Shown piece after piece: positions 4,073 through 4,364 of a stretch of 9,929 nt of DNA. Made by a program: the position numbers and the translations under genes. A model generated the notes under the pieces. The model did not search any database, had not been told where the DNA came from, and saw only the letters and a program-made list of their open reading frames with translations. Where the stretch lies: the NCBI RefSeq assembly GCF_003334255.1, contig NZ_QOWU01000086.1; one strand, given 5' to 3'. The DNA is from Escherichia coli. GTDB lineage: Bacteria > Pseudomonadota > Gammaproteobacteria > Enterobacterales > Enterobacteriaceae. The stretch's first letter is position 1; each line of letters begins with the position of its first letter.

Positions 4073-4296
4073 AATATGTTCCTTAATAAAATTTATTTTT
4101 GGTTGTTAAGAGTCTGTATCTCTTGGAAACAAATTTCTCACATCAAAAAAGCTGCCGCAATGTAAACACATTGTTTTATTGATTTAAAACAAATTAACCA
4201 TTGCAATATAAATACAACAAATATTTAAGAGTATTAACTATTTATCGCATCTATCAATTAATGTAGATTTATGTAAATGGTATTGTTGATATCAAT
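4073..4296 (-). promoter_or_regulatory. AT-rich upstream/promoter region of the yehDCBA fimbrial operon (probable H-NS-silenced region)
   Basis: About 220 bp, visibly much more AT-rich than the flanking genes, with many A/T tracts and a 9-bp direct repeat AAACAAATT at 4127..4135 and 4187..4195. No gene fits here. Exact -35/-10 elements could not be assigned confidently. Confidence 0.4.
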
Positions 4297-4335
4297 AAAA
4301 AAGCCGAAATCATTTATATAAATGATTTCGGCTTT
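4297..4335 (-). terminator. Rho-independent terminator of yehE (perfect palindrome, potentially bidirectional)
   Basis: AGCCGAAATCATTTA (4302..4316) and TAAATGATTTCGGCT (4319..4333) are perfect inverted repeats, flanked by A6 (4297..4302) on one side and TTT on the other. On the minus-strand transcript the hairpin is followed by a U run, about 30 nt after the yehE stop. Confidence 0.6.
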
Positions 4336-4364
4336 CTAAATGCAATTAAAATCAGGTTGCCAAA

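Follow-up and report, generated by a model that had tools for sequence, protein, structure and literature searches.

The stretch of DNA analysed here, 9,929 nucleotides of Escherichia coli contig NZ_QOWU01000086.1 and called the window throughout, is the yehBCD-yehE-apbC-metG locus. Gene layout was taken from the annotation of strain G1/2 and of K-12 MG1655 together with the list of open reading frames, and it is collected with the other features in Table 1. Strain G1/2 is 100% identical to the window over positions 3900-4700, with yehD (a fimbrial protein) and yehE lying under the match, and megablast with the same region matches 5412 of the 5426 complete E. coli genomes. From the gene layout, 4073-4364 is exactly the intergenic spacer between yehE and yehD. 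Downstream of metG, the window carries a 513-aa open reading frame (8324-9865, plus strand); the same position is annotated in strain G1/2 as an incomplete WGR-domain pseudogene with its C-terminus missing, whereas the K-12 annotation has a shorter yehF there and the yehH pseudogene after it. In strain G1/2, the yehA gene downstream of the window's left end is split by an IS1A element (105-802 of its locus), and the yeh operon may be non-functional in the source genome if strain G1/2 is indeed the source.

Table 1. Genes and control features of the yeh locus, in window coordinates
Feature	Position	Strand	Basis or remarks
yehB	280-2775	-	annotation and ORF list
yehC	2776-3495	-	annotation and ORF list
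yehD	3530-4072	-	annotation and ORF list
yehE-yehD intergenic spacer	4073-4364		292 bp, 25% GC, inside published promoter island 4057-4413
yehD 5' leader	4073-4123	-	Shine-Dalgarno AAGGA (4084-4080)
Conserved cis-regulatory block (promoter, operator, leader start)	4098-4222	-	125 bp
Published yehD transcription start site	4124	-	PMC3415461 Table S1, 3 reads only
Repeat copy 1, AAACAAATT	4127-4135	+	-3 to -11, over -10 hexamer and discriminator
Candidate weak sigma-70 promoter of yehD	4132-4160	-	read from sequence, hexamers inferred
Published ArcA~P box	4149-4191	+	four direct-repeat elements, 11-bp spacing; -25 to -67
Repeat copy 2, AAACAAATT	4187-4195	+	-63 to -71, over weakest ArcA box element
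Fast-evolving AT-rich segment	4223-4293		between terminator and promoter block
Predicted intrinsic (Rho-independent) terminator of yehE	4294-4337	-	fold, covariation
yehE	4365-4646	-	annotation and ORF list
apbC/mrp	4909-6018	-	annotation and ORF list
metG	6150-8183	+	annotation and ORF list

The yeh fimbrial genes are classed as core-associated and ancient, with the orthologous stc operon of Salmonella lying at the identical position (Wurpel et al., PMC3559732). The gene order metG-apbC-yehE-yehD-yehC-yehB is also identical in Citrobacter, and low GC content is stable at the Citrobacter locus too, so that the composition carries no mark of recent transfer. The original prediction regarded the fimbrial promoter as horizontally acquired, which in the sense of a recent event is unsupported given the 5412 of 5426 E. 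coli genomes matched, the synteny with Citrobacter and the published classification as ancient (PMC3559732). Very deep yeh alleles exist within E. coli. In a comparison of deep yeh alleles covering window 2870-4646 in O157:H7 and Escherichia sp. E1V33, the O157:H7 allele differs from the window by 20% in yehD, 25% in yehE and 17% in yehC, with apbC 99.4% identical. Across 2.76 kb, the identity of this allele is 96% with Escherichia sp. E1V33 and 92% with E. whittamii, and O55:H7 CB9615 has the common allele (97.8% identity over window 4040-4400). The pattern of the O157:H7 allele suggests recombinational import of the yeh locus into that lineage.

The spacer is the most AT-rich DNA in the window. 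Its GC content is 0.25, compared with 0.405 in yehD, 0.44 in yehE, 0.54 in apbC and 0.529 in metG, and the two lowest 200-bp GC windows of the 9.9 kb (0.255 and 0.265) both sit within it. The yeh block as a whole (1-4900) has a GC content of 0.42 versus 0.525 for apbC and metG together. Both compositional claims made earlier, that the spacer is far more AT-rich than the housekeeping genes and that the whole yeh block is AT-richer than apbC and metG, are borne out by these values, and the spacer is the minimum of the window rather than similar to its flanking genes.

Curvature and phased A-tracts are frequent, though not obligatory, in H-NS-silenced promoter regions. Phased A/T tracts had been predicted for the spacer as well, but AA/TT periodicity is below the shuffle mean: at 10-11.5 bp the power is 0.40, the shuffles average 0.78, and 84% of them equal or exceed the spacer. 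The helix predicted by a wedge model is likewise rather straight, with an end-to-end to contour ratio of 0.95-0.99, and judged by the minimum ratio 90% of shuffles bend as much or more. The model used dinucleotide wedge parameters after Bolshoy 1991, and more weight is given to the periodicity result. The 9-bp direct repeat AAACAAATT is present as described, with 60 bp between its copies, but it does not exceed chance. An exact direct repeat of at least 9 bp is found in 62% of 2000 dinucleotide-preserving shuffles of the 292-bp spacer, and for this reason the repeat is uninformative by itself.

More was learned from comparing alleles. The spacer was aligned across seven divergent E. coli, E. 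albertii, E. whittamii and two further Escherichia lineages, and two Citrobacter genomes were added via their YehE homologues. A YehE search of genome contigs returned Escherichia only, and a YehE protein search recovered Citrobacter, not Salmonella.

Reading along the minus strand, a near-perfect hairpin starts 27 nt past the yehE stop codon. Its core (4303-4332) contains GC pairs and closes on a 4-nt loop; A/U pairs lengthen the stem, and a T6 run (4302-4297) follows. The centroid fold has an energy of -22.3 kcal/mol (z = -5.4), and none of 200 shuffles is equally stable. Across ten Escherichia sequences, 98% of the hairpin cells are paired and four pairs covary, with 10 cells changed on both sides, a covariation score reached by none of 500 shuffles; slid controls are only 29-54% paired. 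The compensatory changes are C-G to U-A, G-C to A-U or U-A, and A-U to G-C. The T-run (T6-T7) is invariant in Escherichia, and Citrobacter, too, has the hairpin, in which one more G-C pair has become A-U. Fold and covariation support this element as an intrinsic terminator predicted to end most yehE transcription, which would argue for largely independent transcription of yehE and yehDCBA. A 2024 preprint treats yehEDCBA as a single operon (bioRxiv 10.1101/2024.06.20.599902), which implies read-through of the hairpin. A simple terminator scan missed the hairpin and gave a weaker site at 4730-4704 instead.

Beyond the terminator lies a segment that retains its composition and little of its sequence. 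Identity of 4223-4293 between deep alleles is 44-56%, compared with 88-96% for the adjoining block 4098-4222, and its GC content stays at 0.18-0.32 in all 12 alleles; AT-richness is kept, the sequence is not. From Escherichia to Citrobacter, the whole spacer varies in length only from 282 to 296 bp and in GC content from 0.24 to 0.31. The sole sigma-70 candidate placed by a promoter scan on the yehD strand falls in this segment (-35 at 4257-4252, -10 at 4235-4230).

The block next to it is conserved above the genes on both sides. It is 88-96% identical to the window in alleles where the four-fold degenerate sites of yehD and yehE are only 45-65% identical, and Citrobacter keeps both a 37-nt core (TAAATCAATAAAACAATG.G.TTACATTGCGG.AAC) and TGTGAGAA. 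Between the window and K-12 MG1655 there are two differences in the spacer. At 4152 the window has C for T, in the weakest ArcA repeat and the promoter spacer, and at 4211 it has C where K-12 has A, so that the minus strand reads TTTGTTG versus TTTTTTG.

Within the block lies a candidate weak sigma-70 promoter for yehD. Its putative hexamers are a -35 element TTGCGG (4160-4155) and, after a 17-bp spacer, an extended -10 element TGaGAAATT, with the TG at 4140-4139 and the hexamer at 4137-4132. Each hexamer matches the consensus at 3 of 6 positions, with the extended TG in addition, and the scan tool gave no call here. The promoter elements are invariant or nearly so in Escherichia, and TGTGAGAA extends this to Citrobacter. 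A start near 4125 was predicted from the conserved sequence before the published start at 4124 was found, and the two agree. Kim et al. 2012 report this start at NC_000913 2190296 on the minus strand from 3 reads, with the upstream sequence ...TGTGAGAAATTTGTTTCCA (PMC3415461), and it gives yehD a 5'UTR of 52 nt. Three more low-count 5' ends in the same dataset, with 2-3 reads each, lie at 2190749, 2190763 and 2190766; they are assigned to yehD and correspond to window 4577, 4591 and 4594 on the minus strand, inside the yehE coding sequence.

The published ArcA box overlaps this promoter. Park et al. 2013 place it at 2190321-2190363 with a total of 12.3 bits and direct-repeat scores of 1.4, 7.5, 6.1 and 3.7 (PMC3798270), and its sequence is found in the window with one SNP. 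Across 10 Escherichia and 2 Citrobacter sequences the core of the box hardly varies, and the box coincides with the cross-genus core. In the same study, the ArcA ChIP-seq peak was seen in one replicate only (3.9-fold), yehDCBA was 5.4-fold up in an arcA mutant and reported as directly ArcA-repressed, and 'no TSS' was given for the operon (PMC3798270). YehD is also among the ArcA targets from genomic SELEX (PMC6134199). Like the ArcA~P operators built from 11-bp direct repeats, yehD has four repeats over the -35 element and upstream DNA and is repressed anaerobically (PMC3798270), and it belongs to the lower-confidence operators with its 12.3 bits and single ChIP replicate. We infer that ArcA represses by occluding the promoter, with which a box at -25 to -67 is consistent.

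The yehD leader contributes a further site. The GGA at 4082-4080, part of the Shine-Dalgarno sequence, is where CsrA was shown to make contact in the EHEC allele. Gelalcha et al. 2024 demonstrated a CsrA gel shift of the EHEC yeh 5'UTR that was abolished by changing GG to CC, and yehD was lower in csrA::kan (PMC11287998). The AGGAA sequence is invariant in all alleles, and the leader flanks in the window allele are unlike those of the EHEC allele.

The same DNA is known as a promoter island. Panyukov and Ozoline 2013 list island 2190229_357 for yehD(-)/yehE(-), and since the yehD start at 2190244 (U00096.2) is window 4072, the island corresponds to window 4057-4413. It is described as AT-rich and dense in promoter-like sites, IslandViewer, GIST and two gene-level methods class it as foreign, and it is scored as H-NS-bound (code 'K') in the summary there of the Kahramanoglou and Oshima ChIP-chip studies (PMC3661553). 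The terminator, conserved core and ArcA box of the island are not dissected in that paper. Over 3900-5000, our simple scan found 3 promoter-like hexamer sites versus 3.3 expected, which is no excess.

Curran et al. place yehDCBA within the H-NS regulon (PMC5797941). The entry for the operon in that source scores its H-NS binding as 'K, O' and cites Korea et al. 2010 for its repression by H-NS, and SlyA over-production is reported to raise yehDCBA 3.6-fold (PMC5797941). The yehEDCBA genes are also inside a silenced extended protein occupancy region (EPOD), and loss of occupancy alone did not induce yehDCBA (bioRxiv 10.1101/2024.06.20.599902). Matches of 8/10 to the H-NS motif TCGATAAATT number three within the spacer or at its edge, two of them in the fast-evolving segment (4239-4248, minus strand, and 4250-4259, plus strand). 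Window-wide there are 20 matches versus 13 +/- 4 expected, and 12 of 200 shuffles reach 20. With motif matches not above chance and no predicted curvature, H-NS binding rests on the published ChIP-chip summaries. The silencing by H-NS that had been proposed for the spacer is therefore supported by the literature, to the extent of those summaries, through the ChIP-chip island at 4057-4413, the H-NS regulon and the EPOD, and not by what the original prediction had drawn from the sequence. Both the AT-rich, H-NS-bound character of this DNA and the action of H-NS, SlyA, ArcA and CsrA on yehD had been published before.

In these respects, yehD resembles the elfA/ycbQ, sfmA and yadN operons, which are cryptic in the laboratory, reported as H-NS-repressed and raised by SlyA over-production; yadN is likewise listed as a promoter island. 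Beyond this likeness, yehD has a published ArcA box and a predicted terminator dividing it from the small gene yehE. The yeh operon is absent from a review of chaperone-usher regulation.

Taken together, we consider it probable (roughly 80%) that 4073-4364 is a composite control spacer, with yehE on one side and on the other yehDCBA, the cryptic chaperone-usher operon for Yeh (Stc-type) fimbriae. Along the minus strand, it would begin with the intrinsic terminator, stopping most yehE transcription, followed by about 70 bp of very AT-rich, apparently unconstrained DNA. The 125-bp conserved block would come next, carrying a weak extended -10 sigma-70 promoter with its start at 4124 and the ArcA~P operator, and then the 52-nt leader, in which the GGA of the Shine-Dalgarno sequence would be bound by CsrA. 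The whole 25%-GC stretch would serve as a platform for H-NS filaments, presumably nucleating in the variable segment, and the operon would thereby be held silent in laboratory conditions. Over-production of SlyA would relieve this silencing in part, and ArcA would add anaerobic repression. An intrinsically weak core promoter would also mean that loss of H-NS alone is insufficient for strong expression. Occupancy and repression by H-NS, the effects of ArcA, SlyA and CsrA, and the start site enter this scheme from the literature; composition, terminator covariation and the pattern of conservation come from the present analysis. The terminator, the conserved promoter and ArcA core, the fast-evolving segment and the CsrA-bound leader were not part of the original prediction.

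It is possible that the AT-richness has no selected role in silencing, and that AT-biased mutation, a terminator and a weak promoter leave a spacer to which H-NS binds passively. The segment 4223-4293 evolves at about the rate of synonymous sites or faster, H-NS motifs are not enriched, curvature is lacking, and the operon stays uninduced when protein occupancy is removed, all of which fit such an account. We consider it improbable, as GC content in the segment (0.18-0.32) and both GC content (0.24-0.31) and length (282-296 bp) of the spacer are held despite the turnover, and as the operon is reported to be H-NS-repressed in the source cited above. This account differs from the composite control spacer solely on whether silencing is selected, and the two are not fully separable. 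Alternatively, the conserved block may be the operator of a further specific regulator, acting besides ArcA or instead of it, for example through the GTTAC-N6-GTAAC-like dyad in TTTACATTGCGGYAAC. This is a doubtful but not negligible prospect; if true, a precise, ancient and inducible circuit would govern the 'cryptic' Yeh/Stc fimbriae, which would then not simply be silenced. The original prediction had suggested regulator binding sites as well, at the two copies of AAACAAATT. Both copies, 60 bp apart, do lie inside the conserved block and the proximal one (copy 1) is invariant in Escherichia, but a pair of sites for a dedicated yeh regulator is very unlikely. Repeats of this length are at chance level, 536, STEFF_1, MOD1-EC7003, E69 and E. 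albertii carry a changed copy 2, and Citrobacter departs from the 9-mer at both copies while keeping the adjoining motifs. Copy 1 overlaps the -10 hexamer and discriminator, which accounts for its conservation; the 9-mer matches no published regulator site, and nothing indicates that it is itself a recognition unit.

Conservation above the level of the flanking genes could also come from a small RNA, a structured leader or a micro-ORF in the block instead of DNA-level sites, and a 21-codon open reading frame does run from ATGTGT in the window and in K-12. Its start and frame are lost in most alleles (ATGTG to ATATG), however, and it was rejected as not conserved. RNA folding of 4098-4222 is not significant on either strand (z = -0.55 and -1.18), a search of all Rfam families at a permissive threshold returned only noise in the form of eukaryotic miRNA and snoRNA models on the palindrome, and the mapped start site leaves two-thirds of the block upstream. 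An RNA or peptide product is highly improbable, and with neither an RNA fold, an Rfam match nor a conserved open reading frame, the constraint is most simply explained at the level of DNA. Fimbrial operons are often phase-variable, and the fimS-type invertible element and the pap-type Dam/Lrp GATC switch are AT-rich and sit upstream of a chaperone-usher major-subunit gene, as the yehD spacer does. An imperfect 15-nt inverted repeat (4174-4188 and 4286-4300) around 97 bp might be taken for the ends of such a switch. Unlike fimS and pap, the spacer lacks GATC sites and conserved inverted repeats at its flanks, there is no recombinase gene next to the yeh locus, and no inverted alleles are seen. 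The right arm of the repeat is the T-tract region of the terminator, O157:H7, E. albertii and Citrobacter do not share it, and 5276 of 5334 matching genomes are collinear over at least 80% of a 361-bp query. Phase variation at this spacer is barely credible on these grounds. A second BLAST place in each genome proved to be the palindrome matching itself on the opposite strand.

The present analysis adds modestly to what was published, with a covariation-supported terminator predicted for yehE and a map of a compact conserved promoter and ArcA-operator core. Selection acts on this core, with the remaining spacer keeping only its AT-richness and length. It also corrects the history of the yeh locus, which is ancient and part of the core, with no recent acquisition. 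The map could be of use in designing reporter or derepression experiments on the Yeh/Stc fimbriae, and otherwise adds little beyond annotation.

Conservation is also seen next to the spacer. The last 16 nt of yehE, AAATCGCTACGATTAA (4365-4380), are invariant in nearly all Escherichia alleles, and the rest of the gene is highly divergent; a conserved protein C-terminus, IVLNRYD, may explain this. An 8-bp inverted repeat, GTAGCGAT/ATCGCTAC, is found at 4371-4378 and 4401-4408. On the other side of yehE, the yehE-apbC spacer (4647-4908) is 91% identical between the window and O157:H7, with the adjoining yehE at 75%. The scans of this spacer gave the terminator-like hairpin at 4730-4704 and a promoter-like site at 4765-4736, both on the minus strand; the hairpin may terminate apbC, and the promoter-like site may drive yehE.
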